NCBI GenBank assembly: GCA_964016885.1 | Contig: OZ024740.1 | Coordinates: 150,536,001 to 150,600,000, forward strand | Origin: Eledone cirrhosa | Lineage: Eukaryota | Reading direction: 5' to 3' | DNA: 64,000 nucleotides | Shown here: positions 1 through 64,000 of the stretch, in pieces | Numbering within the stretch: the first letter of the stretch is position 1 | How the letters are laid out: the number at the start of each line of letters is the position of its first letter | The notes under the pieces: generated by a model | The model's input: the letters and a program-made list of their open reading frames with translations, nothing else | Told to the model about the DNA's origin: nothing | The model's database searches: none | Program-made: the position numbers and the translations under genes

Positions 1-759
1 AGACACTCAACCAACAACAACAGAAAAAACAGAGACAACACCCCTGAAGAACACAACCCCACTCCATCCCACTCCATCAAACACTACCACAAACACACAT
101 ACCGAAACACCACCACCACCACACAACATACCCTTACCCCACACACCTGACGATGATTATTCATCGACGGATGAAGCTGCTTCTCCTTCTTTAAGTGAAG
201 AAGAGGGAGAGCCGCGTAAATCTAAAAAACAAAAAAAGAGACACCACAAAACCCCCAAAACTCCAATCACCAACACCAACACACAACCACAGACACAAAC
301 AACAACACAAACAACACCACAGTCAAACATGTCCCTATCAGCAAATCCAGCACCAACACCACCCCAAACACAAGCACCCACCATAAAAAGAAAACTCCCG
401 GACGAACAACAAACTAAACAACACAACAAAAACACAAACAACAATATGCATACATCAACACAAACAACAAGAGTTTGATGGAGGTCATCTCCCAAAACCC
501 CAAGGTGGAGAGGGAGGGCAAAACTTTCGTCAAGGCAGAATCGTCTCCACACCTTAAACTTATAAGGGTTTCTATGGAAACCTATAAAGACCTAAAAATT
601 AAATTTTCACAGGACGTGGGCAACCCCTGCCACAAACCCATCAACCGCGTCCTGTTGAAAGGTTTCCCCACCCCACCCAACACCCCTTCCAGCACCCAAC
701 ACCCCATCCAGCACCCAAATGAGATTGAACAACCCGATCTCCAGGAAACGAAAAGGTAA
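1..759 (+). pseudogene. C-terminal part of Tx1-like ORF1 (Thr/Pro-rich linker, acidic+basic patch, conserved C-terminal domain), frameshifted
   Basis: SEEEGEPRKSKKQKKR patch and ...HLKLIRVSMETYKDLKIKFSQDVGNPCHKPINRVLLKGF align to the end of copy B ORF1; the two parts lie in different frames. Confidence 0.8.
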
Positions 760-800
760 GTGCACCTTTCGTCCTTTTTCTCCAACTTTTCTTCACCAAC

Positions 801-3800
801 ATGGCTGGTTTACGAGTTGGAACCGTGAATGTGCGTGGCCTAGGGATGCCCTGGAAACAGGGCCAACTTTTAAACGACCTTAGGTCACACAGTATGGATG
901 TGATAGCCATCACCGAGTCCAGGATCCACAACAGGCAGCAACTAACCCCCATCTTCGACGACCTTGAGATCTACACATCTCTCTGTCAGCCAGGAGGTGG
1001 AGGTGGAGTGGCTGTTATGTTTCGGAAGAACCTGGACGTCGGAGTACAGCAAGTACACTTGGACCCGGAGGGTAGACTGGTAGTCCTAGACGCGAACAGT
1101 ATCGGAGGTGGCGCCTTCAGACTGGTGGCCGTTTATGCCCCGACCGGGCAATCGCAATCACGGCCAGACTTCTTTAAGCGTCTAGAGCCTTTTCTGGGAA
1201 CGTCTCGCTCCTTACTTTTAGTGGGGGACTGGAATGGTATCCTAGATCCACGATGGGACTATGTGGGAGCATGTCCCAGTAGAGCGGGGTGCAACAGCCT
1301 CAAAACTTTAATCGGCCAATTCCAACTGGAATCGTAAACCGCAGTGCGACATCTAGATCATATTTAGATAGGTTCTTCATTAGAGAAAGGGACAAGGAGA
1401 TGTTAAGCTGTCCACGAATGCACATGGTTGCCTATTCAGATCACAAGTTAGTCGTCTGCTTAGTCAACCGTGATAGAATACATAGACAGGGTCCCGGATA
1501 CTGGAAGCTGAACGTGTCGTTGCCGGCACGTAAAGCTTACAGTGAACGGATAAGTAGACTAGTCAAGCAACAGTTAACGGGAGCCATCGTCAACAATAGA
1601 TGGTGGTACTCTCTCAAGAAAGCAATTAGAATAGAATCGATAGGGTATAGCAGAGAGTTAGCCTTAGAGAAAAACAGAATAGAAAGAGAACTAGTAGCCA
1701 AGGTAGAGGAGGCACTTAGAAGTGGCAACGCGGCTAGAGTGTTAGCGTCGAGAACGGCACTGGACCAGTTCTTCGATGCGAAACACGAAGGCTGCGTGGT
1801 CAGAAGCAAAACACGTGCTCTAGGAAACGAAGGAGCGAAAGCTGTCAGCTGGGCCCGAGTGGCGGAGGCAAAAAGTAGCAACAAGTCCACGATTCGGTCT
1901 TTGAAAGACCAAAACGGAAGCGTGCTACTTGACCCCAAGCAAATGTGCGCGGCCTTTCAGCGGCACTTTGCGCGACTGTTTGAGCAGAATGACGGTGAGC
2001 CGAACGGGGCAATGGACTTTAGTTCATACCTCGACGGCCTGCCGCGTCTCTCGAACACGGACGCCGAGTTCTGCGAAAGACCGATCACGGACACTGAGAT
2101 ACGGGACGCTCTGGGCCGCTGCGGGAAACGCAAGTCACCCGGTCTAGATGGTCTACCCTACGAATTTTACATAGGCGTGCCGGACTTGTTCTCTGGCGTC
2201 CTCGAAGCCGTCTACTGCAATTGGCAGGAGAACGGGAGAATTCCCAGTTCTGCAGGCAAGGGCGTAGTAACGCTGATCAGGAAAGAGGAGAACAAGGGGG
2301 ACGAAATTAACAACTTCAGGCCCATAACTCTGCTCAACACAGAGTTAAAGATTTTGGCCAAGGTGCTAGCGACGAGGTTGGCGCTTGTCGTCGAGAACCT
2401 GGTAGGGAAAGCGCAAACGTGTGCAATCCCGACCAGGTCCATACACGACAACCTCCACCTCATGCGATACATCATAGAGAGGGTAGGTAGTAAACCCGGC
2501 TTCGGTAGGGCTCTGATCAACTTGGATCAGTCTAAGGCATTTGATAGGGTCGACCATCGATACTTGGAAGCGGTTCTCAAGGCAGCCGGTTTCGGTCCCG
2601 TGTTCAGAGGATGGATCGAGGCGATGCACACCAGCATCTGCTCGAGGGTCAAGTAGAACGGCTACCTATCGGAGCCGTTCGCAATCACGCGTTCCATTCG
2701 ACAGGGATGCCCTCTCTCCTTCATTCTGTATGTATTGACTCTAGAGCCACTAATGCGGAAGCTGGATCGAACTAGGACTACGGAAAGAAGCGTCGGCCTA
2801 GGCAAAGCCATGCCTTCCGACAGTGTCGTTGGACGTTGGACGGAATGACCAGTGAAATTGCTCGGGGTCTGGTTTGGTCCAGACCTCCAGGTGGACAAGA
2901 ACTGGAACGAGGTCACGGCGAAGGTATTTGCACACACTCAGAAGTGGGCTGAGAGCAAACTCTCCTTGAAAGGTCGAGCGGAGGAGGCGAACATAGTGTC
3001 CGTCATCTACTACCGCTTGGCGGTCGTGCCATATCCCGCGAATACCTCACCAAAATGAAACGCCTACTCTTCAAGTTCCTCTGGAAGAAACAGGCTCCAT
3101 TGGTGAGGAGATACATCTGCTGTCAACACCCTCTTAACGGAGGGCTAGGCATGCCGTGGCTGATGATGCGCAAACACGCACTGAGGCTACGCCATCTCCA
3201 GGTATTCCTGACCAGTAAATCGGTGTGGTTGTCGTTTGTGAGACAAGCTCTTCCACAACTCGTCTCGCTAACAGAGCTGCAGTCCCGGGTCAAGCGAAGA
3301 CCAAAAATGGGTGCCTGGTACCTCGAGTGCCTTTAGGCGCTCACAGCCCTCTACGAAGCGGAAACGGTAATCAGCGGAGACTCCACTTCGACATTCTATA
3401 GGGGATCAGTGGAAGATAAGTGCGACGACGTTCTCGGGGAAACTCTAGGCATCGAGGAAGACGAACTGACCAGACTGTTCGGGAGGACTTTCCGTCCAGG
3501 GCCTATGGATAACTTCCAGAGGTCTCTGGCCTGGCAGTGCTACCGAGGAGTTCTACCAGTTCGCGACAAAATCTACAGGCACGGACGCCCTGGCAGAGAT
3601 CCTGCCAAACGGACCTGTCCAAGATGCGAGCAGGACATCGAAACCGTTCTGCACGCAATTGTTCAGTGCACAGGGGTGACCGACCTATGGAATTATGTCG
3701 AACAGCTACTGTCACGTGTGGGACGCATCCAGTTGTCAGCCGAGTTCATTGTGAGGATCACCCCGCCGCCTTCATTTAAGAATTAAGGAGAGGCGGTCTT

Positions 3801-4033
3801 CCTCTGTCAAGGTGGCTATGGCGGAAGAGGTAATATGGTGGACGAGGTTAAAAGGACTGAGGGCAAGAAACTTTCTCTCCGGACAACAACTTATCCCCTT
3901 CTTTAAGTACCACTTCAGAAGGAAGGTGAGAGTGGAGAGAGAGGTGCTACACCCCAGTAAATTCACTGAAAGGTGGGTGAATGTGGCGAAAATGGCCCGG
4001 GTGAATGGGCGTTCGCTGTATATAAACCTGTAG
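801..4033 (+). pseudogene. Disrupted ORF2 (APE endonuclease-RT-CCHC) of copy A
   Basis: APE motifs (NVRGL, ITE, GDWN, YLDR, SDH) and RT motifs (FRPITLLN, LDQSKAFDRVDH). Frameshifting deletion near 1330, stop at 2654-2656, deletion near 2770-2800 that removes YADD, and further stops. Confidence 0.93.
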
Positions 4034-4285
4034 GTTGAGGAAGATAAACAGAGGGAAAACGGGAACACCTACAAAACGTGTTCCTGGTGTTGAGGGTTGT
4101 TCTATCCACGGGGTGTAAAACAACCCTGCAGTAGCGTTACCCCCCCCCCCTAATGGGGATTTCAATTGTTTTATTTTTATATAGTTTATTGTTATTTATC
4201 ATTGGTAAAGATGATATGTAAAACCCCCGCCGTCACGTCTTGTAATGTCCCATTTTTGTACGCCCCTGTGACAAATAAAGTAAGA

Positions 4286-4525: not shown

Positions 4526-4527
<2 letters not shown>

Positions 4528-4728
4528 GATAGAGTAAGACACGCTTCGCATCGGCTCCGCTATTCCATCGGGATTTACCCTTACTATTGTAAGTACCGGA
4601 TAAATTTTTTAGTGCAACACATTTGGAACACTAACCCCTGTTATTTAGGGAAACATTTTTGCATTTACCCCCTTTTTAGGGGGTAAAATAAATATCTATT
4701 TTTGCCGAAAAATTTCTTTCTTGGCAGC

Positions 4729-6564
4729 ATGGCGGAAAAGATGGCAGACATGTCTGCCATTAGCTCTGCCACGCCCCCCAAGTCTGAAGAACAAAAAATA
4801 ATTACAACAAAATTAGACATTGAAACAAACAAACAAAATGAAAAAACAAATGTTAAGGAAAATGAGCAAACAGAAAACAAACAAACAGAAAATAATACAA
4901 ATAACGACAGGGCAACTTTCGCCCAGAAAACAAAGCAATCCATTACATACACACCAATTGACCTAACTGCCGCCAGAGAAAAACTGGCCGAAGCAAAGAA
5001 ACATATTGTTTTGGGGGAGAACGGAATGTTTTCCATTAACTCCCCCCCAGAATTCAAGAAAGCCAGAGCAGAAAACACAGTTATATACAGAACTATACTA
5101 AACCAGTCAAGAAAGCCAGCACAGCCCAGCCAAATGGAAATAGAGTTAGTCCTAAAAGACTATATGAAGAATATTCTCTTCATACGAAAGGACCGACTCT
5201 ATGGCAGCATTTCGGTCCTAACAAGAGACAAAGAAACGGCGGTTCAGCTTTCCCTAAGCCCACTCTCGTCGACAACATATAGCTTCTATCCCTCCTACAT
5301 GGGTAGAAGAACACAGAGAATAAAAGTAAAAACAATGCTGCCCACAATGGACTTCTGGTGGGCTATTGCTGGCTTCATTGATATGGGCGAAGACACTATG
5401 CTGTCAATGGGGAAGGCAACTGGAGATGCGTTCCTGGGAATGGGCCTCGACATACTAGTCCAAATGAGGCCCGAAAGAATAGCACAAATCCCGGATCGCA
5501 TCTGGCTGGATGACCTTACCCCAATAGACATAATTGTAGAGGGGAGAAGACCAGCATGCTATTTATGCATGGAAAGGGGACACGTTAAGGCTAACTGCCC
5601 GAAACGTATCCCCCAAAAAGGACTATTGCCCACACCCACCACAAACAGTACACCAGCACCACCCACCTCCAAAAATACACTAATACCACACACAGCAAAC
5701 AAAATACAGACACCACCAACCACAAACACAACACAAACATCACCACCACCAGCACCAAACACAAGCACGACACAAAAATCACCACCACCAACCACAACAC
5801 AAACATCACCACCACCATTACCAACCACAAGCACGACACAAACATTACCACCACCACCACCACAAAACCCATTCCAAACAAATAATAAAAAAAACAGTAA
5901 CAAATCTACCCCTCCCGCAAAAAAAAACAACCACACAACACGTCCCTCCCACCTAGCGCTGAAGAGTTTCCCCCAACTTCTGAAGAAGAAGGAGGAGAAG
6001 CCTTCAGACAAGTTAAAAGAAAAAAAAGAAAACACACACCCAGCACACCACAAATAACCCACACACAAACACCAACTCCAATCAAAAACACCCCACCCTC
6101 AACAAACAAAAATAAATCTGCGCCTCCCCTCTCCGAAACATTGACAGCATCACAAAAAAAAGACGTTGCAATACACATATATAAATAAAGAAAACAAAAA
6201 ACTGGTTAAATTAATAAACAATAACCCTATGGTGCAGACCGAAGGGCCAAACTTTATCTCAACAGAGAACTTCACCCATTTAAAAATGATAAAGGTCCCT
6301 CTGGACCTTTATCGTTCCTTAAAAGAACAATTTAGACGGGACGTGAGCCCCCCCTGTTTAAAACCGTTGAATCGCGTCCTCTTGAAAGATTTCCCCATAA
6401 CCGCCCCTCTCCCTGACACAACTCCAAATACCCCAACCCCACCACACACGTGTACCCCCACACCACCACAAAACATCCCTCCACCCAACACACCTGATGC
6501 CATGGAAATTACGCAACCCGGAGAGGTAAGTGCTTTTCTTTCTTCACTTTCAACACCAAAATAG
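4729..6564 (+). CDS. ORF1 (gag-like nucleic-acid-binding protein) of copy B, interrupted by two compensating frameshifts at A-runs
   Basis: ATG at 4729; CYLCMERGHVKANC zinc knuckle; Pro/Thr-rich linker. The SEEEGGEAFRQVKRKKRK patch lies in a different frame between A-runs at about 5919-5927 and 6155-6162; the conserved C-terminal domain is back in the original frame. Confidence 0.82.
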
Positions 6565-9500
6565 ATCAATTGAGAGTTGGCTGTTTGAACGCGCGTGGCC
6601 TGAGCTCAGCTTGGAAGCAAGCAAAGCTTCTAAGTGACCTCAGGTCACAAAGTATAGATGTGATGGTTGTTTGCGAGAGTCGGATCAGCAGCGTGAGACA
6701 GCTGGCGCCCGCCTTCGATGACTTTGAGATGCACGCATCTCTCTGTCAACCCGGAGGCGGGGGGGGGGGGGGAGTTGCCGTACTGCTGGATAAACGTCTG
6801 ACTCTCGACGTACAGATTGTTCACTCGGACCCGGGGGGTCGATTACTGGTGCTGGACGTCGGAGGTGGTGAAGGCGGGGCTTTCAGACTGGTCGGTCTTT
6901 ATGCTCCCTTCGGGGCGGAGAGAGCCGACTTCTTCCAACGTCTGGAGACTTTTCTAGGAACGTCGCGTTCCCTGCTTTTAGTGGGGGACTGGAATGGAAT
7001 CCTAGATGCGCGTTGGGACTATGCAGGGGCATGTCCCGATAGAGGGGGGTGTAGCAGCCTCAAGGGGTTACTCGATCGATTCGACCTGGTCGATAGATTT
7101 CGACTAGATTGTCCAACTGCGCCAACCTGGACCTGGGCAAACCGCAGTGGACAATCTAGATCGTACCTAGATAGGTTTTTGGTTAGGAGTAAGGATAGGG
7201 ACGTATTTAGTTGTCCAGAACTGATCATGGTTGGCTATTCAGATCACAAATTAGTGACCTGCGTGGTCAACCTTGATAGAACGCATAGACAGGGTCCCGG
7301 TTACTGGAAGATGAACTTGTCCTTACCGACAAAGAAAGATTACAGAAACCGGATTAGTAGCTTAGTTAAGATGCGGTTGACGGGAGCGATCGTCAACAGT
7401 AGGTGGTGGATATCTCTAAAGAGAGAGATTAGAGTAAGTTCGATAGGTTACAGTAAGGAACTAGCGGCGAATAGAAATAGGAGGGAAAGGGAGTTAACAG
7501 ATAAACTAGAAGAGGCGATTAGGAGCGGAGACGTAGCCAGAGTGTTAGCGACGAGAACGGCATTGAGCCAGTTCTTTGACGCGAAGCACGAAGGCTGCGT
7601 TGTCCGAAGTAAAATACGTGCTTTAGGAAACGAGGGGACCAAAGCTGTTAGCTGGGCCCGCGTGACAGAAGCCAAGAGTGGGATTAAATCCACCATTCGG
7701 TCTTTGCGAGACCAGGATGGACGGGTGATCCTTGAACCTGAGCGAATGTGCGAGACCTTTCAAAGGCACTTTGCTCGACTGTTCGGAGGTGGCGGGGGGC
7801 CGGACGGGGATGTGGACTTCGGTCCATACCTCGACGGTCTACCGCGTCTTTCGAGCGGCGAAGCGGAGTGCTGCGAAGGGCCAATCACAGCCACTGAAAT
7901 CGGGGAAGCGCTCAGCCAATGCAGCAGACGCAAATCCCCGGGTCTCGATGGTCTACCATACGAACTTTATTTAGCTATGCCGGTCTTGTTCTCCGAACTC
8001 CTCGAGGCTGTCTATTGCAACTGGCAACAGAACGGGAGAATTCCCTGTTCTGTGACCAAGGGCGTGGTCACGCTAGTGAGGAAGGACGAGAGCAAGGGGG
8101 ACGACTTAAGTAACTTTAGGCCCATAACTCTGCTGAATGCAGAGTTACAGATTTTGGCCAAGGTGTTGGCGAAGAGGTTGGCGCTTGTGGTGGGTGGTTT
8201 GGTGGGAGACGCGCAGACATGCGCTATCCCGTCCAGGTCCATTCACGACAACCTCCACCTCATGCGATACATCATAGAGAGGGTTGGCTACGAACCCGGC
8301 TTTGGTGGGGCCCTGATCAACTTGGATCAATCTAAGGCGTTCGATAGGGTCGACCATGGTTACCTGGATGCGGTGCTAGCGGCGGCGGGCTTCGGACCCG
8401 TTTTCAGGGGCTGGATTTCTGCCATGCACAGTGGCAACATCTACTCTAGGATTAAAGTAAACGGCTACCTCTCAGAGCCGTTTCAAATCACCCGATCCAT
8501 CAGACAGGGGTGCCCCCTCTCCTCCCTTCTGTACGTATTGACTCTCGAGCCACTGCTGCGGAAGTTGGAGTTGCTGCGGGGCATACCCCTGGAACCGGGA
8601 TTGCACAAAGCGGTCTCGGCCTATGCCGACGACGTAACAGTAATGGTGGCGGACGCCTCGGAAATCGGGGCGATCGCCACCCTACTGGAGGAATACGAAA
8701 GGCTGACGGGGGCTAAGCTGAACCAGGACAAGTCAGTCGGTTTGCAACTCGGAACGTGGAGGGGCAAACCGATGCCGTTAGACGGTGTCGTCGGGCGGTG
8801 GACGGAGGGCCCGGTGAAGCTGCTCGGGGTCTGGTTCGGACCGGACCTCCAGGTGGAGAAGAATTGGGGCGAGGTGACGAGCAGGGTGTTTGCGCTGACC
8901 CAGAAGTGGGCCAAGTGCAAACTATCACTGAAAGGTCGGGCGGAGGTGACGAACGCTTACATAGCGTCCGTCATCTACTACCGCCTGACCGTCGTGCCTT
9001 GCCCCAAGGAAAAGCTCACCATCATGGAACGCATGCTCTTCCAGTTCCTCTGGAAGAAGCGGCCTCCCATGGTGAGGAGATCCATCTGCTGCCAGCACCC
9101 TTCGAAAGGAGGGCTGGGTATGCCGTGGCTGTTGATGCGTAGGCACGCATTGAGGCTACGGCATCTACAGGTATTCCTCAACGGTCAGCCGGTGTGGGCC
9201 CCGTTTGTGAGGCGAGCCTTCCCACAGCTCGTCTCGCTCACCGAACTGCAATCCTGGGTGAAGCAAAGACCGAGAAAACTGGGCAACTGGCACACTGAGT
9301 GTGCCCAGGCGCTCACGGCTATCTGGCAAGCGGACCCGACTGTCAGTGGAGAATCCACCTCGACATTCTATAGAGGGTTGGTGGCTAGCAGGGGCGACGA
9401 CACCCTTGGAGAGTCGCTAGGCATGGAGGAGGACGAACTGGCCAGCCTGTTCGGTAGAACTTTCGGCCCGGGACCCATGGACAACTTCCAGAGGTCCCTA

Positions 9501-10004
9501 GCCTGGCAGTGTTACCGGGGGGCTCTGCCCGTTCGAGAAAAGCTCTACAGACACGGGCGCCCGGGCAGGGATCCCGCGAAAAAGATCTGTCCCAGATGCG
9601 TGCGCGACGAGGAAACCGTTGCGCATGCACTGGTACACTGCCCGGGCGTTGCCGATCTGTGGGGCTACGTCGAACGACTGCTGTCGCGTGTGGCGCCGAT
9701 TCGATTAACCGCCGAGTCTGTGGTGAACATCAAGCCGCCTCCTCCCTTCAGAAATGAAGCAGAGGCGGTCTTTCTGTGCGTAATAGCCATGATGAAAGAG
9801 GTTGTGTGGTGGACGCGCCTGAAAGGTCTGAGGTCGGGTGACTTTCTCTCCGGCCATCACCTGGTTTACTTCTTCCGATACCACTTCGGAAGAAGAATCA
9901 GGATGGAGAGAGAAGTGCTTGGTCCCAGACAGTTTTATGAAAGGTGGGTGAAAGAAGCGAGAATGGCCCGTGTAAATGGGCCTTCTCTCTACATTGTTCT
10001 GTAG
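6561..10004 (+). CDS. ORF2 of copy B: APE endonuclease + reverse transcriptase + C-terminal CCHC finger; no internal stops
   Basis: NARGL, GDWN, YLDR, SDH; PGLDG, FRPITLLN, KAFDRVDH, RQGCPLS, YADD; CPRC..ETVAHALVHC. Alignment to copies A and C puts the start at 6561 (ATA); the ORF track start is TTG 6570. Confidence 0.95.
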   Translation: MDQLRVGCLNARGLSSAWKQAKLLSDLRSQSIDVMVVCESRISSVRQLAPAFDDFEMHASLCQPGGGGGGGVAVLLDKRLTLDVQIVHSDPGGRLLVLDVGGGEGGAFRLVGLYAPFGAERADFFQRLETFLGTSRSLLLVGDWNGILDARWDYAGACPDRGGCSSLKGLLDRFDLVDRFRLDCPTAPTWTWANRSGQSRSYLDRFLVRSKDRDVFSCPELIMVGYSDHKLVTCVVNLDRTHRQGPGYWKMNLSLPTKKDYRNRISSLVKMRLTGAIVNSRWWISLKREIRVSSIGYSKELAANRNRRERELTDKLEEAIRSGDVARVLATRTALSQFFDAKHEGCVVRSKIRALGNEGTKAVSWARVTEAKSGIKSTIRSLRDQDGRVILEPERMCETFQRHFARLFGGGGGPDGDVDFGPYLDGLPRLSSGEAECCEGPITATEIGEALSQCSRRKSPGLDGLPYELYLAMPVLFSELLEAVYCNWQQNGRIPCSVTKGVVTLVRKDESKGDDLSNFRPITLLNAELQILAKVLAKRLALVVGGLVGDAQTCAIPSRSIHDNLHLMRYIIERVGYEPGFGGALINLDQSKAFDRVDHGYLDAVLAAAGFGPVFRGWISAMHSGNIYSRIKVNGYLSEPFQITRSIRQGCPLSSLLYVLTLEPLLRKLELLRGIPLEPGLHKAVSAYADDVTVMVADASEIGAIATLLEEYERLTGAKLNQDKSVGLQLGTWRGKPMPLDGVVGRWTEGPVKLLGVWFGPDLQVEKNWGEVTSRVFALTQKWAKCKLSLKGRAEVTNAYIASVIYYRLTVVPCPKEKLTIMERMLFQFLWKKRPPMVRRSICCQHPSKGGLGMPWLLMRRHALRLRHLQVFLNGQPVWAPFVRRAFPQLVSLTELQSWVKQRPRKLGNWHTECAQALTAIWQADPTVSGESTSTFYRGLVASRGDDTLGESLGMEEDELASLFGRTFGPGPMDNFQRSLAWQCYRGALPVREKLYRHGRPGRDPAKKICPRCVRDEETVAHALVHCPGVADLWGYVERLLSRVAPIRLTAESVVNIKPPPPFRNEAEAVFLCVIAMMKEVVWWTRLKGLRSGDFLSGHHLVYFFRYHFGRRIRMEREVLGPRQFYERWVKEARMARVNGPSLYIVL

Positions 10005-10236
10005 GTGAAGAAGTGAAGAGGAAAGGGGGAGCGCCTCCTCTCTGGGCTTCCCCCGCGAAAAGAGTTGCACACTTTTCGGGGGTATGTGCAATCCCCAACA
10101 CGCCCCCTCCCTTTTGAGGACTTTTTATTGTTATATTATTATTGTTATTCCTTTTTTCTTTACTCGATTTATGTAAACTCCCCCACTGTGTAAATGTCCC
10201 CTTCTTTTGTGCCCTCGTGGCAAATAAATAGAAATT

Positions 10237-13203: not shown

Positions 13204-13463
13204 GCGATTTATGTGATTGGATCCAGCATTTCAACTTTCAAAATATTCAAGCACCTCGATGAACATAGCTCATAATTTGAACAGATGTTGCCATTTGGCG
13301 TAAGGGTAGCATACTCGGCCAGAACTTGAAAGATATGAAGTTCTATTCTTCGTATTTGCTCATGGTCACTTAATTTTTCTATCCCTATTGGTATTTTACC
13401 CGATTTTCTAAAGCTGTATTTATAGCGATTTCTGCGTTTATATGCCATTATTTAGATGCCATA

Positions 13464-13656
13464 GGGCGGTGGATTGGCAGTATCGGTAGAGGGTCGGACG
13501 CCATGCTTTGCAGCAAAGAGTTACGGCCCTTTAGGGTTTGAGTTCAAATCCCACCGAGGTTAACTTTGCCTTTCATCCTTACGGGGTCGTTAAAAAAAAG
13601 TACCAGTAATACACAGGCATAATTGCTGGCCTTGTGACAAAAGTAGAAACAATTAT
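13464..13656 (+). mobile_element. tRNA-derived SINE, dominant family (OK/MetaSINE-like), short form
   Basis: A-box TGGCAGTATCGG, B-box GAGTTCAAATCC, central GCCTTTCATCCTTACGGGGTCG..AAGTACCAG, 3' end GGCCTTGTG..AAAAGTAGAAACAATTAT; about 20 copies in the window. Confidence 0.88.
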
Positions 13657-14468
13657 AAAAAAAAAAATTATATATATATTAAAAGTTTGAATAGATGCCA
13701 AAACTAGATAAACAACATCCTTTTATCTTTTGAAACACGAAACTGATAATGGTTAGTCTATATTTTGCCACCAATCAATTTTCATTAAATTCATTTTTTT
13801 AATGAATAATATAGTTGATGAATAATTAAATGGAGCATTCAGCAATGTTTACAGACTTTGAAATGATGTAGTTACAATTATTTCTTCTTTTTGCGCCAAA
13901 ATGGTTAAACATTTTACTTATATTATGAGACTGGAAAGAAAACTTTCTTTAGGCTACTTCAGTGGCCTGAGTGTTAAAAGCTTCAACAAATTCTAAGTTA
14001 TAAGCTGATCTTTTGAAAATCCTGGCAACGACGTGCAAAAGAGAGGAATCGATACGAGTATAAACAAACGTCCCTTAATCGTTTAGCAACATAATCGATT
14101 AAGAAGAAAATTAAAGTGAAGAAGAAAGGTGGCACCATGTCCAAGAAGCCAGGACTAGAAGTTAAAGAGTAAGAAAGGAAAAGTAGCAAGTTAAAGCATG
14201 CCAGCATTTCGGTTTGTAGGAAAATAATAATCACTGGAATAAACAGTAGAAGATGCCAGTACTTACTAATTCCTATAAAAACCTCTTCATTTGTTCACCA
14301 TTCTCATCTCTGTATACAACGTACCAAATCTAGTACATATGTAGGAAACCTGCAAAGAGTCATGCCAGGATACATCTTACATCCAAATTCTGCCTATGGT
14401 TCACAAGGGTTTACCAGCAGATCAAATTAATGACTGAAAATCTTATCTCTCTGGAGTCATGTCAAGTA

Positions 14469-37780: not shown

Positions 37781-37876
37781 ATGTAGTGAGCTATTAGTAA
37801 TACAACTGTTATCAATTATTTAGCTGTTGCTAAATAAATCAATCTTTAACATTATCCTTATTCTGCTAAGTTTAAT

Positions 37877-38850
37877 GTTACCTTTCATCCTAACGGGGTC
37901 GATAAAATAAAGTACCAGTAATGTACTGGTGACGATTTAATCGACTTTCTGCCCTGCTAAAATTGTTGGTTTTGTGCCTAAATAAGAAAGCACTTTGCCT
38001 TTCATCCTTACGGGGTCGATAAAATAAAGTACCAGTAATACACTGGATGATTGCTGGCCTTGTGCCTAACGTAGAAACAATTATTATTAGCAGTATCGGT
38101 AGAGCATCGGTGGATTGGCAGTGTAGTGACACACACAGTGTAGTGACACAGCAGTATCAGTAGGGCATCAGACAACATTCTTCGTGGCATAGAGTTGTGG
38201 CCCTTTACATTCTGAGTTCAAATCCCGATGAGGTTCATTTTGCTTTTCATCCTAACGGAGTCGATAAAATAATGCACTAGTAATACACTGGAGTTGATTT
38301 AATCGACTTTCTCCTCCCCTAAGATTGCTGGACTTGTGCGACGGGGTCGATAAAATAAAATACCAGTAATGCACAGGAAATTTCTGGCCTTGTGCCTAAA
38401 GTAGAAAGAATTATTACAATTATTATGGCGGTGGATTGGCAGTATCGGTATAGGGTCGGACGCCATGCTTTCCAGCAAAGAGCTACGGCCCCTTATGGTC
38501 TGAGTTCAAATCCCGCCGAGGTTAACTTTGCCTTTCATCCTTACGGGGTTCGATAAAATAAAGTACCAGTAATGCACTGGGTCGATTTATTCCCCTTAAA
38601 AAATTGCTGGCCTTGTGCCTAAATTAGACACCATTTTTATAATTACTATGGCGGTGGATTGGCAGTATCGGTAGAGAGTCGGACGCCATACTTTCCAGCA
38701 AAGAGTTACGGCCCCTTATGGTCTGAGTTTAAATCCCGCCGAGGTTAACTTTGCCTTTCATCCTTACGGGGGTCGATAAAATAAAGTACCAGTAATGCAC
38801 TGGGACAATTGCTGGCCTTGTGCCAAAAGTAGAAACAATTATTATAATTA
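37877..38850 (+). mobile_element. Head-to-tail cluster of about 6 full or partial dominant SINE copies
   Basis: Full copies at about 38088-38340, 38427-38640 and 38650-38842, partials between them, separated by ATTATT spacers. Confidence 0.9.
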
Positions 38851-40765: not shown

Positions 40766-41124
40766 ACCTATCGCTGAAGTGAGATTAGGCGAAAAGTTAA
40801 TCAAGTTATTTGACATCTTTTTAAGCTTCAATTATTGATCCTTCCTTTCGACTGACTACACAACAACAGCACAAACCACAGCAGCATCAACAATAACAAC
40901 AACAGCAACAGTGACATCAAGAACAGCAATAATAATTTAATTATAATGAAATATATAGCGCAGCTATTGTCAATGTTATTGATTAAGTCTAGTAGTTGCA
41001 GTGGCGGTGATAGTATGGGGGAGGGTAGTGGTGGTCGTTGTTGTTATGCTGATGATGATAGAAATAATCGGAATGGTGATGATCGTTGTTGTTTGGTGTA
41101 TTAAAGGTGTTATTATTTGTAGTA

Positions 41125-41845
41125 GGGCGGTGGATTGGCAGTATCGGTAGAGGCTCGGACGCCATGCTTTGACGCATAGAGTTACGGCCCTTGCCATTCT
41201 GAGTTCAAATCCCGCCGAGGTTAACTTTGCCTTTCATCCTTACGGGGTCGATAAAATAAAGTACCAGTAATACACTGGTTAATTGCTGGCCTTGTGCCAA
41301 TAGTAGAAACAATTATTTGTAGTGGGGAAGGCATTGGATTGGCAGTATCAGTAGAGGGTCCGACAAAATACTTTGCGGTATTTAATAGGGGCTCTCTACC
41401 TTCTGAATTCCGCTGAGGTTAGCTTCGCTTTTCATCTTTAGAGAGTCGATAAAATAAAGCACCAGTAACGCAGTAGAGTCGATTTAATCGATTTTCCCCT
41501 CGCCCCAAAATTGTTGGCCTTGTGCCTAAATCAGAAACCATTATTTGTAGTGGTCAGGGCGGTGGATTTGCACTATCGGAAGAGCGTCGGACAAGATTTG
41601 CCGCATATAGTTTCGGCCCTTTACGTTCTGAGCTCAAATCCCGCCGAGGTCAGAGATCAAATTTCGCTGATATCAAGTTTGCATTTCATCCTTCCGTAGT
41701 CAATAAAATAAAATACCATCCAAGTACTGGGATTGATATAATCAACTTTCCCTTTTCATAAATTCCTGAACTTGTGCCTAAATTAGAAATCATTTGCACT
41801 GGGTAATTGCTGGCCTTGTGCCTAAAGTAGAAACAATTATTTGTA
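41125..41845 (+). mobile_element. Head-to-tail array of three dominant SINE copies
   Basis: Copies at about 41125-41318, 41330-41545 and 41557-41840, each bordered by ATTATTTGTAGT. Confidence 0.88.
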
Positions 41846-42796
41846 GTAGTGATAAAGCGGTGGACTAGAGAATCGTCAAAGCATCGGGTTTTCCTAATGC
41901 GCTCAAGAGTCAGGTATTCTAAATGCGCACTCGCATCGGGTCTAGCGTATGCGCACCCGCATCAGATATTAGGTATGTGTACTTGCACCAGATCTTGTGC
42001 ATGTGTACTAGCAATGGAGCTTTATGTCTTTGTTAGAAATCAACTATTCGTTTATGGAAAACTATTGCTGCATCCGTCACTCACAATCCAGTATGACTTG
42101 ATAGTATATATACCACGCTTTCACCAAGGTCACCATGCAATGGCGAGCGGACTGATAACTCTATTGCTCCTCACTCAATTAATCCAGCGGAACGCCATTG
42201 ATGTAATAGCTGGAAGAGGAGCGGGATGCATCAGCACTGGTACGTTCCTTATCGAATCCGAAAGTATGAAAAACACAGTGGAACTCGTATGGATTTGAAT
42301 TCAGAAAACCAATACGAGGAACGCATGTCCAATTTTGCCAAATCAACTGCATTGGCCTCTTTAGGGAGAATAATATAAATAGAATTTGAAGATATACATA
42401 CATACATACTTCCATACTTCCAAACGTTCAGACAAACGAAAATTGGAAACATAAGTTTACCCACGTTAGGAAATTACAAGTACAATCCAGTAATGGAACA
42501 GTAAAAATATGTAAAACATTCTAAAACTTCTGCATCTAATAACTGCATATACACTTGTACAGATACAAAGCATATGCACATGCACACATACAACTCAAAA
42601 TATACACATCCACACATACAATAACATCCATACCTGCACACACATGCATGCAGGCATGCATGCATTTCTAGCTAATTGATGTTGTGTAAATTCCAATGAG
42701 AGAGTCATGTATCTATGCTAGAAACCGACTCTCTCTCTATTGGCAAACATTTGAGAAATTATAAAACCAGAACATACATACATACATAGATACATA

Positions 42797-50505: not shown

Positions 50506-50815
50506 TTAATTTTAACAACAAATTCAGTAGCAGCAATTGTAGTTTTAGTCATAGTTGTAATTGTCGTCGTCGTAGTATTATTATTATTATTATTATTATT
50601 GAATGCTATGGTTGACGGAGGCTCGGCTCTGTATTGTATTGTAAATTTTGAACGTTATAACAATTGTAAATTGTTTAAAACTTAGACCAACTTGTAGACA
50701 AAAACACCCTCCTCCTCGTGAGAGGGGTCTTTCTGCCCGTTATTTGGCCCTTCGGGGTTAAATAACTGCTTATTGGGGTTTTGTACCCAATATTTATTTT
50801 AAACAAAAAAACAAC

Positions 50816-52942
50816 ATGGCTACGAAAAAGAATTTGCATGGGTCACTCCCACTCATTCCGTCTTCTTCTTCCCCAATCGTCACTACAGCAGAGAGAAGAT
50901 TGTCTCTCTCCATCCCTTCTTTAAATGTGTCTCTCTCCCTCCCTTCTTTAAATGTGTCTCTCTCCCTCCCTTCTATTTCGCAAGCGACGAAAGAAAAGAA
51001 AAGTCTCGTGCAAAGCGTGCAAGGTTTCTCCACGACGACGACGACAACGACGAAACAGGTGTGCGGGAAATACGAAAACCCAGTTCATTCGTCTGACGTC
51101 AGGAATAATAGCAGTAGCAGCCGTAATAACAACAGCAACAGTGACAATGAAAACAACAGTAGCAGCCGCCATAGCATCACCAGCAGCATAAACAACAACA
51201 GCATTATCAGCAGCAACACCAACAACAACCACAGCAACAGCGGCGGAGGCAGTAGTCGTAGTACCTGCAGCAACAACAAAAGTAACAGCAGCTCTGACGA
51301 CAACAACAACAACAGCAGCAAAGAAAAACCAATCTCATTTGCAGGTATTGCGAAACACTTGGAAACAATCCTCATAACAAATGAGGAATTAGAGGAAGCG
51401 AAGAAGATGGTGACAAAGAATGGACACCGAGCAATCTGCAAGGCAGCGGAAAAATTTTTCGAAACCCAACAGCACTGTACGGTCACGTACCGTACAGTAA
51501 GTACAAAATCCCGTAGGGTGGAAAGAGCCACAGAGGCTCAAATACAAAAAGGCTTGGGGTCTGTGTGGCAGCGGAAAACGCACATCACCCGAGGCAAAAA
51601 ATATGCCACCGTAGACGTACTTTTTGCCACACCCCAGGAGGCAAAGGCCCAATCCGTAGTGACCCTAAGGAGCGAGGAAATGGTGTTGGTGCCCTCCTAC
51701 TGCGGGCAAAAAATTGTGAGGGTCAAACTGTTTGACCCTCACAATTTTTGTGCTTCTTGGCTGGCCGCGTCTGTCCTCGTCGGAATCGAGGACAAAACAA
51801 CTGTTCTGCAAGTACAGAAAAAAGTAAGAGAAGATTGGGTCGGCACCTCCATTGAGATGCTAATCCAAACCAACCAGGAGTGCATCGAAGCTATCCCGGA
51901 TGTGATAGACTTCGATAACGGCACTCAACTTCCCATAAGTGTTGAGGGAAAACGCCCGAAATGCTTTCGCTGTGGATCGAAGACTCACCTCAGGGCCTTC
52001 TGCAACGAGAAGACCCTGAGAAAGGAGAAAACCCCCCTCCTCCCGAAACCGGCTCCACGGCTACCAGCAACAGGACAAGCGGCAACCAGGAACGATAGGT
52101 CCGTGGCACCCATACCCACGCCACGGAAATCAAAAACAGCAGCAGCAGTGGAAATATTAACAACAACAACAGCAATACCAAATGCAGCTGCAACAGAGAC
52201 TCCAGTGCAAACATCACCAACAACAACAAGTGAAAGAGTGGAGCTGGTACCCCACCCCGACCTCACAGAATCAGACATGGAGTGTGAGGTGGGAGAGGGA
52301 TGGCAAAAGGTCGTAAGAAGGCACAAACGCAGAAGCAGCGCATCGTCGCCTTTGAAAAGGGAGGAAAGAAATGAGAAAAGGGTAAAGTCTACTGTAAAGA
52401 GACCCACAGCAGCAACACCACCAACACCATCACCACCCACACTAGCACCACCATCACCACCGGCGACAACCCCACCGCCAACAACACCTTCAACACCACC
52501 ACCACAAGCACCAACATCGCAAACGCAACAACAAAACACACACACCCAGCAACAACGACAAGAAAATAGCAGAACCACACCCCACCCCCAGAAAAACAAA
52601 TGCACAGCAATAAATACACACAGCAAGAAACTAATGACTTACATAATTGAACACACAGACATTTCACAACACGACTACATAATACCAGCACCAATCAAAA
52701 CGGCAACTAACATAAGACTGCTAAAAATAGCACAGAAACAATACACAAACATTAAAACGAAATTCCCCAACGCAGTTGGTGATTTCAGGGACCTAGGAGG
52801 AACTATCAATCGAAGAGTATATTCAGACATTCTCATAGAAGAGCCAACGACCAGCCGAAGGGACGATTCAACGGTCCCTTCACCAGACGATCAAGTGAAA
52901 AGGGATGTAAAAACCACCCCTCCTCTACCAAAAGTACGGTAA
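50816..52942 (+). CDS. ORF1 of copy C (708 aa, intact; gag-like CCHC protein)
   Basis: CFRCGSKTHLRAFC knuckle; region before it aligns to copy B ORF1 (VTYRT, PSY.G, ISVEGKRP); Ser/Asn- and Pro/Thr-rich tracts; GWQKVVRRHKRR basic patch. Confidence 0.9.
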   Translation: MATKKNLHGSLPLIPSSSSPIVTTAERRLSLSIPSLNVSLSLPSLNVSLSLPSISQATKEKKSLVQSVQGFSTTTTTTTKQVCGKYENPVHSSDVRNNSSSSRNNNSNSDNENNSSSRHSITSSINNNSIISSNTNNNHSNSGGGSSRSTCSNNKSNSSSDDNNNNSSKEKPISFAGIAKHLETILITNEELEEAKKMVTKNGHRAICKAAEKFFETQQHCTVTYRTVSTKSRRVERATEAQIQKGLGSVWQRKTHITRGKKYATVDVLFATPQEAKAQSVVTLRSEEMVLVPSYCGQKIVRVKLFDPHNFCASWLAASVLVGIEDKTTVLQVQKKVREDWVGTSIEMLIQTNQECIEAIPDVIDFDNGTQLPISVEGKRPKCFRCGSKTHLRAFCNEKTLRKEKTPLLPKPAPRLPATGQAATRNDRSVAPIPTPRKSKTAAAVEILTTTTAIPNAAATETPVQTSPTTTSERVELVPHPDLTESDMECEVGEGWQKVVRRHKRRSSASSPLKREERNEKRVKSTVKRPTAATPPTPSPPTLAPPSPPATTPPPTTPSTPPPQAPTSQTQQQNTHTQQQRQENSRTTPHPQKNKCTAINTHSKKLMTYIIEHTDISQHDYIIPAPIKTATNIRLLKIAQKQYTNIKTKFPNAVGDFRDLGGTINRRVYSDILIEEPTTSRRDDSTVPSPDDQVKRDVKTTPPLPKVR

Positions 52943-52977
52943 GTGGTCTTTCCCATCTTTTCCACTCTTTTTTAAAC

Positions 52978-55900
52978 ATGACCTCACTCAGAATAGGCAG
53001 CATAAATGCGCGTGGCTTGGGGTCGTCATGGAAGCAGGGTCACCTGCTCAACGACCTCAGGTCACTAAACATAGATGTAGTGGCCATCAGCGAGACCAGA
53101 ATCTCCGAAGCACGGGCCTTCGCACCGATCTTCGGCGGTTACGATGTGTACGCATCTCCCAGCCGTCCTGGATCGGGGGGAGGAGTTGCTGTGCTTTTTC
53201 GGAGAGGTTTGGATCTCGCCATACGGGCCATCTTCCTGGACCCAGAGGGTAAGCTGGTGGTGCTGGACGTGACCAGCGGAGACGGGCAAGCTTTCAGGCT
53301 AGTGGCCGTCTATGCCCCGACAGGAGCAGGGCGGCCTGATTTCTTCCGGCGTCTGGTGACCTTTCTTGGAACGTCCCACTCTTTAGTGTTAGTGGGCGAC
53401 TGGAACGGGATCTTAGATGCACGCTGGGACTGCGTGGGATTAGCGGATAGGGGTGGAGGGTGCAATAGCCTCACCAACCTGCTCAGGCGTTTTGAACTGT
53501 CTGACAGGTACCGATTGGATTTCCCGAATGTGCCAATGTGGACTTGGACAAATCGCATAGGGTCATCCAGATCATATCTAGATAGAGTATTTTGTAGGGA
53601 AATAGATAGGTCTAGCATAGGCTGTCCACAATTCAAGATAGTCAGCTACACGGACCACAAATTCGTGATCTGTGTGCTTGACTTAGATAGGCTTCATAGA
53701 CGAGGACCCGGCTACTGGAAGCTAAACGCGTCCTTACCAGCGCGCAAGGCCTACAGAGACCGGATTAGCGAACTAGTTAAGCGGGCGTTGACGGGGGCCA
53801 TCGTCAACAACAAGTGGTGGTTTGCTCTGAAAAGAGCGATTAGAATAGAATCCATTAGGTTTAGTAAGGCTTTAGCAATAGAGAAAAATAGAGCAGAGGG
53901 AGAACTAGTTAGAAAATTAGACGAGGCGCTTAGCAAAGGCATTGCGACCGACGTGCTTGCGGCGAAATTGGCCCTTGACCAATTCTTCAATGCAAAGCAC
54001 GAAGGCTGCGTTGTCAGAGCAAGGGTGCGTGCTCTCAGAAACGAGGGGACGAAAGCCGTTCAATGGGCCCGAGTGGCGGAGGCGCGTCGTGGCAACAAAG
54101 CCACGATCCGGTCTTTGGTGGACCACGACGGGCGCATGCTACTCGATCCCGGGAAAATGTGTGAAGCTTTTCAGCGACACTTCGCTCAGCTGTTCGGGGG
54201 CAGCGGTGGGCCGGGTCGAGGGATGGACTTTAGTGTCTACCTCGACGGACTGCCGCGGCTCTCGGCCACTGAGGCGAAGTGTTGCGAAAAGCCGACAACA
54301 GCCGCTGAAGTAAGGGAGGCAATGACTGGCTGCACAAGGGGTAAATCGCCTGGTTTGGATGGTCTGCCCTATGAACTTTACGTACAGATGCCAGACTTGT
54401 TCGGAGGCCTCTTGGCGGACGTCTATTGCAACTGGCAACAGAAAGGGAGAATTCCCAGTTCTGTGAGCCGAGGAGCGGTGGCACTGTTGAGAAAGGATCC
54501 GAACAAGGGGGATAACATAGATAATTTCCGGCCCATAACTCTGCTAAACACAGAGTTCAAGATTTTGACCAAGGTGCTAGCAAAGAGGTTGGCGCTTGTC
54601 GTTGGTGGTCTGGTGGGAGAGGCGCTGACATGCGCCATTCCCGACAGATCCATCCACGACAACCTCCACCTCATGCGATACATCGTAGAGAGGGTAGCTA
54701 AGGAACCTGGCACGGGTGGGTCCTTGATCAATTTAGATCAGTCGAAAGCTTTCGATAGGGTCGACCATCGTTACCTAGCGGCAGTCCTGAGGGCGGCTGG
54801 CTTTGGGCGCGTCTTCAGAGGCTGGATCGCTGCCATGCACAGCGACATCTGCTCTGTGGTGAGAGTGAACGGTCACCTGTCGGAACCGTTCAACATCATG
54901 CGCTCGGTCCGCCAAGGATGTCCCCTCTCGTCCCTCTTGTACGTATTGACTCTCGAGCCATTACTGCACAAACTGGAGACGTTGAGGGGAGTCCCGCGCG
55001 AACTAGGATGCGGAAGATCCGTGTCAGCATATGCGGACGATGTCACCGTAGTGGTGTCGAACGCCAAACACCTCGAGGCGATCGGCACTACACTAAGAGA
55101 ATATGAAGCGGTGACAGGAGCAATGATCAACCAGGAAAAGTGAGTGGGCCTGCAGCTCGGCACCTGGAGAGGCAGGTCCATGCCGTCCAACAGCGTCGTC
55201 GGACGCTGGACGGACGGACCGGTTAAATTGCTAGGGGTCTGGTTCGGTCCGGACCTCCAGACGGACAAAAATTGGGACGAGGTGACGAGCAGGGTGGCTT
55301 CTCTCACCCAGAAATGGGCCGAGAGGAAGCTATCCCTGAAAGGTCGAGCGGAGGTGGCTAACGCGTACATCGCGTCTGTCATCTGCTACCGCCTGACCGT
55401 CGTACCTTGTCCTAAGCCTCGCCTGACTGCGCTGGAGCGTTTGCTCTTTCGCTTTTTGTGGAAAGGACGCGCTCCGATGGTCAGGCGGTCCATCTGTTGT
55501 CAACACCCGCTACGTGGAGGGCTGGGCATGCCGTGGCTGATGATGCGCAGGCACGCGCTCAGGCTACGACATCTCCACCTCTTCCTCGACGGTGATCAGG
55601 TGTGGTCGCCGTTTACTAGACACGTATTTCCCCAGCTCGTTTCCTTGACGGAGCTGCAGTCCTGGGTCAAGCGAAGACCGAGAGGGAGCGCATGGAGACT
55701 GGAATGTCTTCAGGCGCTCACAGCCATCGACCAATCGGGCAATGTGATCGGTGGAAACTCCACCTCGGCGTTCTATAGAGGATTAGTGGAGTGGAAGAGC
55801 GACGACGTACTTGGGGAAACTCTAGGCGTCGACGAAAATCAACTAGCCAATCTCTTTGGAAGAACTTTCGGGCCAGGGCCTATGGACAACTTCCAGAAAT

Positions 55901-56397
55901 CCCTGGCCTGGTAGTGCTACCGAGGAGCCTTGCCAGTTCGGGATAAACTCTACAGGCATGGAGGTGCCGTCAGCCGGGCATGTCCGAGATGCGCGCAGGG
56001 CGACGAAACCGTCCTGCACGCACTCGTCCAGTGTCCGAAAATTGCTGACTTGTGGGTTTATGTCGAACACCTGCTGTCGCGTGTAGGACGGATCCGGCTA
56101 TCATCTGAGTCCATCGTGAGGATTGCCCCGCCCTCCTCCTTTAGCCGGGAAGGGCAGGCAGTTTTTATCTGTCTGGTGGCCATGGCGAAAGAGATAGTAT
56201 GGTGGACACGTTTGAAAGGGCTGAAGACGAGCACTTACCTCTTCGGTGATGCTCTGATTGACTTTTTCAAATTTCATTTGAAAAAGAAAATCAGAGTAGA
56301 GAGGGAAGTGCTCTCTTCCCAGCATTTTGTTGAAAGATGGGTGAGAGAAGCAAGAATGGCCCGAGTGAATGGGCCTACTCTGAGTATATATCTGTAA
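52978..56397 (+). pseudogene. ORF2 of copy C (APE-RT-CCHC), single frame with two nonsense codons
   Basis: All motifs including YADD present. TGA 55141-55143 (Ser in copy B) and TAG 55912-55914 (Gln in copies A and B); no frameshift. Confidence 0.93.
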
Positions 56398-56678
56398 ATT
56401 AAAGGTGGAAAACTGGGAGAGGGCACTTGCCTTGGTGGTCAGGGTCATTGTGGCTTTTTACTGGGCTTTCTCCACAAATGTCCCTGCGAAGTCTCCCCCC
56501 TATTGGGGAATTTTTCATTGTTATTTTCATTGTTATTTTTGTTACATCCTCTGTTTTTGTTTTTTACACGCAGAAATGCCCATTTGTACCGTCCTGTATT
56601 GTCCTGCACTGTCCTTAATGTCTACTTTATGTAAACCCTTGTGGTTAATAAAGAAATCATTATTATTATTATTATTAT

Positions 56679-61984: not shown

Positions 61985-62720
61985 CATTATTATTATATCA
62001 ACATCACCATCATCACTATAATATCATCATCAGCTCAATCATCATCATCATCATCATCATCATCACCACCACCACCATCATTATATCATCATCATCGTCA
62101 TCATCATCATTATATAAATATTACTATCACCACATCATTATATCACCATCATCACCATCATCATCACGACCACCATCATTATACCATCATCATCACCACC
62201 ACCATTATATCATCATCATCATCATCACCACCATTATACCATCATTATATCATCATCATCGTCATCATCATCATTATATAAATATTACTATCACCACATC
62301 ATTATATCACCATCATCACCATCATCATCACCACCACCATCATTATATCATCTTCATCACCACCACCACCACCACCACCACCATTATATCATCATCATCA
62401 CCACCACCATTATATCATCATCATCATCACCACCATTATACCATCATTATATCATCATCATCGTCACATCATCATTATATAAATATTACTATCACCACAT
62501 CATCATCATCATCATCATTATATAAATATTACTCACCACATCATCATCATCATCATTATATAAATATTACTATCACCACCGTCATTATATCATCAATATC
62601 GTCCTCCTCATTATTTTATCATCATTATCATCATCATCTTTATATACATGTTATATAAATATTATCATCGTTATCATTTTAACATCAACATCGTCGTCAT
62701 TATTATTATATCATTAATAT
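61985..62720. repeat. (CAT/CAC/TAT) low-complexity tract with a higher-order unit
   Basis: CATTATATAAATATTACT(ATC)ACCAC recurs about 5 times among trinucleotide runs. Confidence 0.9.
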
Positions 62721-62730
62721 AATTGTTTCT

Positions 62731-62902
62731 AATTTAAGCTCAAGGCCAGCAATTACCCAGTACATTACTGGTACTTTATTTTATCGACCCCGTAAGGTTG
62801 AAAGGCAAAGTTAACCTCGGCGGGATTTGAACTCAGATCATAAAGGGACGTAACTATGCTAGAAAGCATGGCGTCTGACCCTCTACTGATACTGCCAATC
62901 CA
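62731..62902 (-). mobile_element. Dominant SINE copy
   Basis: Reverse complement of the family consensus. Confidence 0.9.
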
Positions 62903-63127
62903 CAATAATTATTATCATCATCACTATCGTCCATTTTATACTCCTAGCATCAGTATCATCGGTGGCAACATCAATATTATTTATTAAATATATCTATATC
63001 ATCATTGTCGTCACCACCCCACAACCACTAACATTACCACCAGCACCTACTTCATCACAACCAACCCCCCCTCCTCCTCCTCATCATCATCATTAATGAT
63101 GGTGGTGGTGGTGGCAGTAGTATTAGT

Positions 63128-63785: not shown

Positions 63786-64000
63786 AGTAGTAGTATTTGA
63801 TGTTGCGATAAATGAAAATGACGATAATGATGGAGATGATGATGATATTTAAACAGTATTTTAATATCAATGCTATTATCTCAACATGAGTAAACCACCG
63901 AGTTAACTAACTTCATCATCACTACTATCTATTCACCACTACCACCATCATTTCAACTATTACCATCGATAAACCACTATCCGTAACATCATCACCTGTA

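Follow-up and report, generated by a model that had tools for sequence, protein, structure and literature searches.

The question raised by this locus is what a consensus 5' splice donor is doing at the boundary between the two open reading frames of LINE retrotransposons. The window, i.e., the whole stretch of 64,000 nucleotides that was analyzed, contains three such elements, all on the plus strand. Copy A (1..4285) is a 5'-cut, frameshifted two-ORF LINE with APE, RT, and zf-RVT domains that ends in (TATC)n. Copy B (4527..10235) is full-length and lies between (TATC)n tracts, with an open ORF2, and copy C (50601..56657) is full-length between (TAT)n tracts, with an ORF1 frame that is open for 726 codons and an ORF2 with two stops. 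A CCHC knuckle (CX2CX4HX4C) is found in the ORF1 of B and C, interrupted in copy B itself, and the ORF2 domains are PF03372, PF00078, and PF13966, the last of which is below the curated cut-off in B. The simple-repeat flanks of B and C could be explained on the 3' side by the elements' own tails. We take A, B, and C to belong to the Tx1 clade (L1 group) from this anatomy and the repeat flanks, the homologues that were returned bearing no Tx1 names.

The donor motif and its constraint

The motif GGTAAGTG was found at 755-762 in copy A, 6525-6532 in copy B, and 52938-52945 in copy C. The GT positions of the first-pass annotation (756, 6526, and 52939) were confirmed, and they lie 45, 35, and 39 nt upstream of the ORF2 start positions 801, 6561, and 52978. 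Written with a slash at the donor cut, the site reads AAG/GTAAGT in copy A (753..761), GAG/GTAAGT in copy B (6523..6531), and ACG/GTAAGT in copy C (52936..52944). In A and C it stands in phase 2 and its own TAA is the ORF1 stop; in B it stands in phase 0, within the ORF1 codons. The number of such 8-mers in the window was not significant (4 seen vs. 1.69 expected, and at least 4 in 10/100 shuffles), and it is the shared position of the motif, not the raw count, that carries weight. The different codon phase of B is real and a family trait, since the frame stays open for 604 codons, across GAG GTA AGT and up to TAG, in 11 of 29 anchored B copies; this rules out a frameshift artifact as its source. 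The flanking ORF1 tails had been described as not alignable. This does not hold for A and B, whose tails align as protein (KPINRVLLKGFP/KPLNRVLLKDFP and EIEQP/EITQP), and the ORF2 DNA of A, B, and C is 68-74% identical among the three. Therefore, these are related families and not independent origins.

The 8-mer had also been called invariant, which is correct for copies A, B, and C but not across more families, where the core is G/GT..GT and positions +3/+4 and +7 vary. The variants at +3/+4 were GTAAGT, GTGAGT, and GTAGGT, with only A or G at both positions, and G/GTRRGT was kept in all 15 family representatives. These were picked from 40 long loci on the condition that the 5' junction and the 3' end match, and they stand for ~12 independent families (three pairs are ~95% alike; ORF2 is 63-96% identical). 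The rows left out had no 3' end (L133-L136, L143), the 3' end of another family (L132, L140), or a cut junction (L268), or they were redundant or decayed copies. G(-1), G+1, T+2, G+5, and T+6 were invariant in 15/15 representatives, and the flanks from -12 to -2 and from +7 to +16 had no invariant column. Elsewhere, invariant columns made up 2/98 of the aligned upstream region, 1/41 of the spacer, and 30/158 of the ORF2 fourfold sites. The comparison of 5/7 motif columns with 30/158 fourfold sites gave a binomial P of ~0.004, with the sites taken as independent and the tree ignored. A motif-blind sample was drawn with a pattern on the endonuclease N-terminus, which found 2,630 further copies; among the first 30 examined, 25 had G/GTRRGT upstream and the remaining 5 were one base off.

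The phase of the motif differed between families. It was 0 in B, 1 in E, H3, F2, and K (and in H via sister copies), and 2 in A, C, D, G, I, and F, so that the codons at the motif are Val-Ser in phase 0, Gly-Lys or Gly-Glu in phase 1, and Arg-stop in phase 2. As the motif occurs in all three phases, the families have no protein constraint in common. G/GTRRGT was absent at the ORF junctions of 18/18 distant L1-like relatives. These were the loci that reach the ORF2 start among 70 metagenome loci; the nearest sister proteins (34-40% identity) are known as protein only and are not among them. All motif families form one clade (100/99), indicating a single origin. The first-pass annotation proposed an RNA-level signal under selection that is more than a stop codon, and suggested looking for it in other families. 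Its occurrence in phases 0, 1, and 2, in 15/15 representatives and in 25/30 motif-blind loci, with 5/7 columns invariant and the top U1 match in 14/15 elements, agreed with this proposal. Judged by these sequence comparisons, the motif is a real, selected RNA element.

U1 complementarity and the predicted long-range helix

In pairing with the 5' end of the host's own U1, the motif ranked 1st of 274-345 GT sites in 14/15 elements and 2nd in C, with 6-9/11 matches and energies of -10.4 to -13.7 kcal/mol. For the families seen in the window, the ranks were 1/290 (A, family representative), 1/281 (B), and 2/313 (C). It is reported that U1 at the donor suppresses early polyadenylation in EVD, in the part of that work considered here (PMC5580714), and likewise in foamy virus, with RNA structure that keeps U1 off the site according to the sections covered (PMC3694450). 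In human cells, nuclear retention is described as being caused by an intact 5'SS motif, in the portion of the article used (PMC9074902). In our families, A(A/T)TAAA signals were absent from ORF2 in 7/15 and present in 8/15, and the 600 nt before the donor contained one in 11/15 and none in 4/15. Since such signals near the donor are not universal, a need for shielding against early polyadenylation is not evident.

In 15/15 families, the ORF1/ORF2 junction is complementary to the ORF2 stop and the 3'UTR, with a predicted duplex of -62 to -93 kcal/mol. The predicted 5' arm begins 40 nt upstream of the donor and extends across the donor and the pyrimidine spacer into the ORF2 start, and the predicted 3' arm takes in the ORF2 stop together with the initial 85 nt of the 3'UTR. 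The pyrimidine spacer between the donor and ORF2 is thus explained, within this model, as a strand of the predicted helix. The helix had z scores of -4.8 to -10.6, was reached by 0/100 dinucleotide shuffles in each of the 15 families, and outscored every one of the ~220 other segments of its element in 15/15. In copy A, the predicted 5' arm (711..805) holds the ORF1 tail, donor, pyrimidine spacer, and ORF2 ATG at 801, and pairs at -72.6 kcal/mol with 4026..4117, which holds the ORF2 stop and the start of the 3'UTR and is only ~80% identical to family A. In copy B, 6490..6568 would pair at -64.2 kcal/mol with 9994..10089, which carries the CTGTAG/GT stop and a purine-rich 3'UTR. In copy C, 52894..52982 would pair at -69.7 kcal/mol with 56390..56476, where CACTTGCC pairs with the donor. 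A whole-region MFE fold formed the helix in C (37 pairs with the 3' end, 3,961 nt) and not in B.

Two-sided changes were found at 12/47, 7/63, and 6/54 consensus pairs, giving covarying complementarity of the strands, and cognate partners paired more cells than deranged ones (329 vs. a maximum of 322, 171 vs. 165, and 144 vs. 139). These changes and controls support, and do not prove, co-evolution of the arms, as the relatedness of the sequences inflates the counts. The cognate 3'UTR was the best partner in 5/15 rows only, and the others preferred a sister family. At least 5/9 donor bases were paired in 15/15 families; the six intronic bases were fully paired in 6/15, nearly so in 1/15, and partly looped in 8/15. 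With 2-4 donor bases looped in these eight families, the predicted masking of the donor is partial. The helix was not seen in any of the 4 testable distant relatives among the 18 outgroup loci.

The acceptor-like CTGTAG/GT at the ORF2 stop has CCAACATGG as its predicted partner. In D, E, G, and I, the ORF2 stop reads TAG/GTRRG and is itself donor-like, with an overlap of acceptor and donor as in recursive splice sites; this context is not present in C, C2, K, or H. We also observed that at 2766-2800, where ~190 nt are missing, the identity between copy A and family A falls from 96% to 80%. The 3' part of this copy comes from a family outside the sampled loci, yet it pairs with the junction of A (-72.6 kcal/mol).

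Search for traces of splicing in genomic copies

A spliced RNA, once retrotransposed, leaves a copy joined at the donor, so that use of the donor can be looked for in the genome itself. Copies with exact 20-mers at the junction numbered 1,527 in C, 773 in the A group, and 643 in B in the host genome of 3.0 Gb, and the three families are young and abundant. In family C, 0/1,539 copies were spliced at the donor; 1,527 continue with GTA, and the 12 that do not (7+3+2) all have point changes or a short deletion. Family B had no copy with a non-GTA continuation, against ~643 copies, a denominator taken from a different 20-mer. The A group showed 0 canonical joins among 82 variants read of 855 copies, where the variants searched were continuations other than G followed by A, C, or G. 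No canonical join was found in 1 variant of family D or 40 variants read of E/H, which are variant sets without total copy counts. In the A, B, and C test, every GTA continuation was counted as one class, and C has one downstream AG/GTA. A precise GT-AG loss of the SpIRE type was found in 0/1,539 C copies and in none of the B, A-group, D, and E/H variant sets, and no ORF2-less copy joined at the donor was found in C, B, A, D, or E/H when second exons that begin with GT were included in the search. For human L1, 131/6,609 copies (~2%) were spliced according to the portion of the source used here (PMC5860796). Routine use as a real donor, one of the two roles first considered for the motif, was therefore not supported in C, B, the A group, D, and E/H. 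The absence of spliced DNA copies may also be compatible with a spliced RNA that is not retrotransposed.

Several candidate joins were rejected as canonical splicing. The A-family copy L335 (G000:C2:135302702) lacks 129 nt starting at the donor; the loss runs to the base after TTAG and exceeds a GT..AG excision by that one base. The deletion in L414 ends in GA with GTA microhomology; L248, L341, L352, and L369 have short deletions; and in L364, an equivocal case, the donor exon is followed by a simple repeat. Among the joints listed for the contigs X4-X6 against copy C (n=8), which come from runs of unrecorded kind and count neither way, none starts at 52938. The contigs X4 and X5, of the same unrecorded kind, pass unbroken through the copy C donor, which likewise counts neither way.

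A different kind of junction was found in family C (52892..52896, plus strand). At 52895/52896, the ORF1 of another family, X, runs up to the donor cut of X and is followed by a C2-like ORF1 tail that begins just after CAG. A pattern ending at 52895 matched 97 loci; among 20 that were read, 15 belong to family X, in which the donor of X itself follows at that point, and the other 5 are variants of C. In the 300 nt upstream of the join, C and X are 87-91% identical in 11/14 X copies compared, and in ORF2, C shares 95% identity with C2 and 80-85% with X. C2 carries CAG immediately 5' of the joined base, and this acceptor has no pyrimidine tract. The join sits at the outer end of the predicted helix arm of C, so the swap kept the arm that matches the 3'UTR of C. 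This hybrid, joined exactly at the donor of X, suggests that the site can be cut, and splicing of a read-through RNA would be the simplest account of it. A template switch at AG may instead have made the hybrid, but a switch at a 2-nt AG match would land on the donor only ~1 time in 23 (there are 23 AG in the last 300 nt of X). Family C copies (G000 C1 and C2) often lie head to tail with ~6.05-kb spacing, and this arrangement would supply read-through RNAs across neighbors. L132 and L140 combine 5' parts of the E and H types with a K-type 3' end ~3.9 kb downstream, and are nested insertions or further hybrids.

Proposed temporary U1 docking and its alternatives

The reading we favor, with a confidence slightly short of even, is that the motif is a conserved U1-complementary donor within a predicted helix and probably lets U1 dock for a limited time on an RNA that is normally unspliced. 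In what follows, U1 binding, formation of the helix in cells, and every functional step are what we infer. The donor is transcribed ~3.4 kb before its pairing partner, so that U1 snRNP would bind during transcription of ORF2, and bound U1 would favor read-through to the genuine 3' end. Synthesis of the 3'UTR would then allow the helix, which is much stronger, to form over the donor, leading to no splicing and no nuclear retention, and the helix would also close the ORF2 start against the ORF2 stop. Rare escape to splicing in the read-through RNA of adjacent copies would be a likely source of hybrids such as family C. In its full form, this would be a transcription-timed switch, in which the U1 site is accessible only during transcription of ORF2 and is afterwards closed by a helix of 3.4-kb range, so that only 3'-complete RNAs are exported and translated, and in which escape splices neighbors into ORF1-swapped families; we put this forward as a tentative scheme that is possible and would more probably fail than hold.

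The motif could instead be a regulated true donor, from which a fraction of the transcripts is spliced to the AG of the ORF2 stop (CTGTAG/G) or to an acceptor in the 3'UTR, giving an ORF1-only mRNA as in EVD, with the helix setting the fraction. We consider this doubtful, but it is the strongest of the alternatives. The donor is the strongest in the element, the hybrid of family C suggests that it can be cut, Ty1/copia EVD offers a precedent in the part of that work covered (PMC5580714), and 13/15 families end ORF2 in TAG, mostly as CTGTAG/G after a pyrimidine-rich stretch. However, C and C2 end ORF2 in TAA, the conservation of CCTGTAGGT is equally explained by pairing with ACCAACATGGC, and the C-terminus of a spliced ORF1 would not be conserved, since the phase of the donor varies. 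Such an RNA would also retain the 3' tail, and still no ORF2-less copy joined at the donor was found in the searches above. A mini-intron of 34-61 nt that fuses ORF1 to ORF2 in frame is hardly credible. The AG that 13/15 families have in frame within ~60 nt of the donor arises automatically, in phase 1 and phase 2, from the AGA-GT codons of a conserved R-V; in A, an in-frame AG is lacking over 110 nt from the donor, and in B none occurs before +92. Moreover, the fused RNA would be the one that is copied, but the segment is missing in 0/1,539 C copies, and no such join exists in B.

It is unlikely, in our opinion, that the helix alone is the functional unit, with a donor-like motif that is inherited and has no U1 role. 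Here the helix would act in translational coupling or RNP folding, as a ribosome that ends ORF1 opens it and restarts at ORF2. The predicted helix does close at the ORF2 start and stop, the +2 to +4 variants in phase-2 families are exactly TAA, TAG, and TGA, and family B reached 643 copies with an ATA start that overlaps the ORF1 stop, which fits AUG-tolerant reinitiation as the covered part of PMC5972666 describes it. What argues against a helix without U1 is that a helix permits compensatory change, yet the donor strand is fixed at U1-critical positions while its partner varies; in addition, the motif is kept in phases 0 and 1, in which it provides no stop codon, and the central donor bases are unpaired in 8/15 families. 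Finally, the donor might persist mainly by letting the read-through RNAs of neighboring copies swap ORF1 through splicing, so that new families arise. Family C, with more than 1,500 copies, joins the ORF1 of X exactly at its donor to a C2-like tail after CAG. The idea rests on one event with an acceptor that lacks a pyrimidine tract, however, and we regard it as very unlikely, as such rare events can hardly keep five bases invariant in every family.

Structure-gated U1 sites are already known from retroviruses and copia elements, and none was found for a LINE in the open-access literature. The 5' splice site of MLV, for example, is reportedly attenuated by structure that is local and lies in the LTR or leader. 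The major splice donor of foamy virus is similar to our proposed docking site, as the covered text describes an RNA that has to remain full-length and on which U1 access is switched by structure in the RNA (PMC3694450). That structure is a local one within the LTR or leader, whereas here it is predicted only and the predicted partner is 3.4 kb away, and hence the switch would be timed by ORF2 transcription. EVD and plant Ty1/copia elements also have a conserved U1-type donor near the boundary between structural and catalytic coding regions, and in EVD U1 protects the full-length RNA, in the part of the source used (PMC5580714). In contrast to EVD, an LTR element for which a spliced GAG RNA has been demonstrated, our families have no conserved in-frame acceptor, no spliced product was seen among the copies examined, and a predicted long-range helix lies over the donor. 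Human L1 and its SpIREs represent a LINE with functional-looking donors, the use of which is readable from genomic copies; the L1 donors described in the covered sections lie in the 5'UTR, with ~2% spliced copies (PMC5860796), whereas our donor lies at the end of ORF1 and none of the copies examined was spliced, apart from one candidate inter-element hybrid.

The Tx1-clade LINEs that target microsatellites (Kibi, Koshi, and crocodilian Tx1; PMC4494074) and 13 recently active L1-Tx1 families of Octopus vulgaris (PMC13282606) likewise have two ORFs, an APE-RT-zf ORF2, a CCHC ORF1, and simple-repeat flanks in the parts covered. Neither an inter-ORF donor nor an ORF2-spanning helix was found in the covered parts of these two papers, and the main text of PMC13282606 has 0 occurrences of "splice". 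The wider search, which extended to neither Repbase notes nor subscription papers, gave no example of a LINE with such a donor or helix in the open-access literature. Beyond mammalian L1, there is only a partial understanding of how the RNA of a bicistronic LINE escapes splicing, is made to full length, and rations ORF2. A conserved donor under a predicted helix whose ends coincide exactly with the start and the stop of ORF2 is a compact unit that lends itself to mutation, with rescue by compensatory changes in the 3'UTR or in U1 built in, and the hybrid junction offers a concrete route for the replacement of ORF1 between LINE families. If true, the transcription-timed switch would be of a kind that is not described for non-LTR elements.

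The start of ORF2 in family B deserves a separate comment. It is ATA and overlaps the ORF1 stop TAG (6561..6564, plus strand), and the same 20-mer carried ATA in 643 genomic copies and ATG in 0; ATA was also found in 29/29 anchored copies. The first in-frame ATG is codon 35, which falls after the conserved N-terminal endonuclease motif. It suggests non-AUG reinitiation or mobilization in trans. Termination-reinitiation in SART1 and L1 is comparable in its bicistronic RNA, short spacer, structure near the restart, and tolerance of a non-AUG start, and it differs in that the covered part of the source mentions neither a donor motif nor a pairing to the 3'UTR (PMC5972666).

The window contains other repeats besides the three LINEs. 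An unrelated, frameshifted fourth RT element with zf-RVT lies on the minus strand at 32178-35676, with no such junction in the part seen. Its C-terminal region has no Pfam hit and presumably is similar to a restriction-like endonuclease. An abundant SINE-like repeat of ~200 nt is present at 13462-13660 and in many other places, and occurs in decayed tandem form at 37860-38850, 41120-41850, and 62700-63800.
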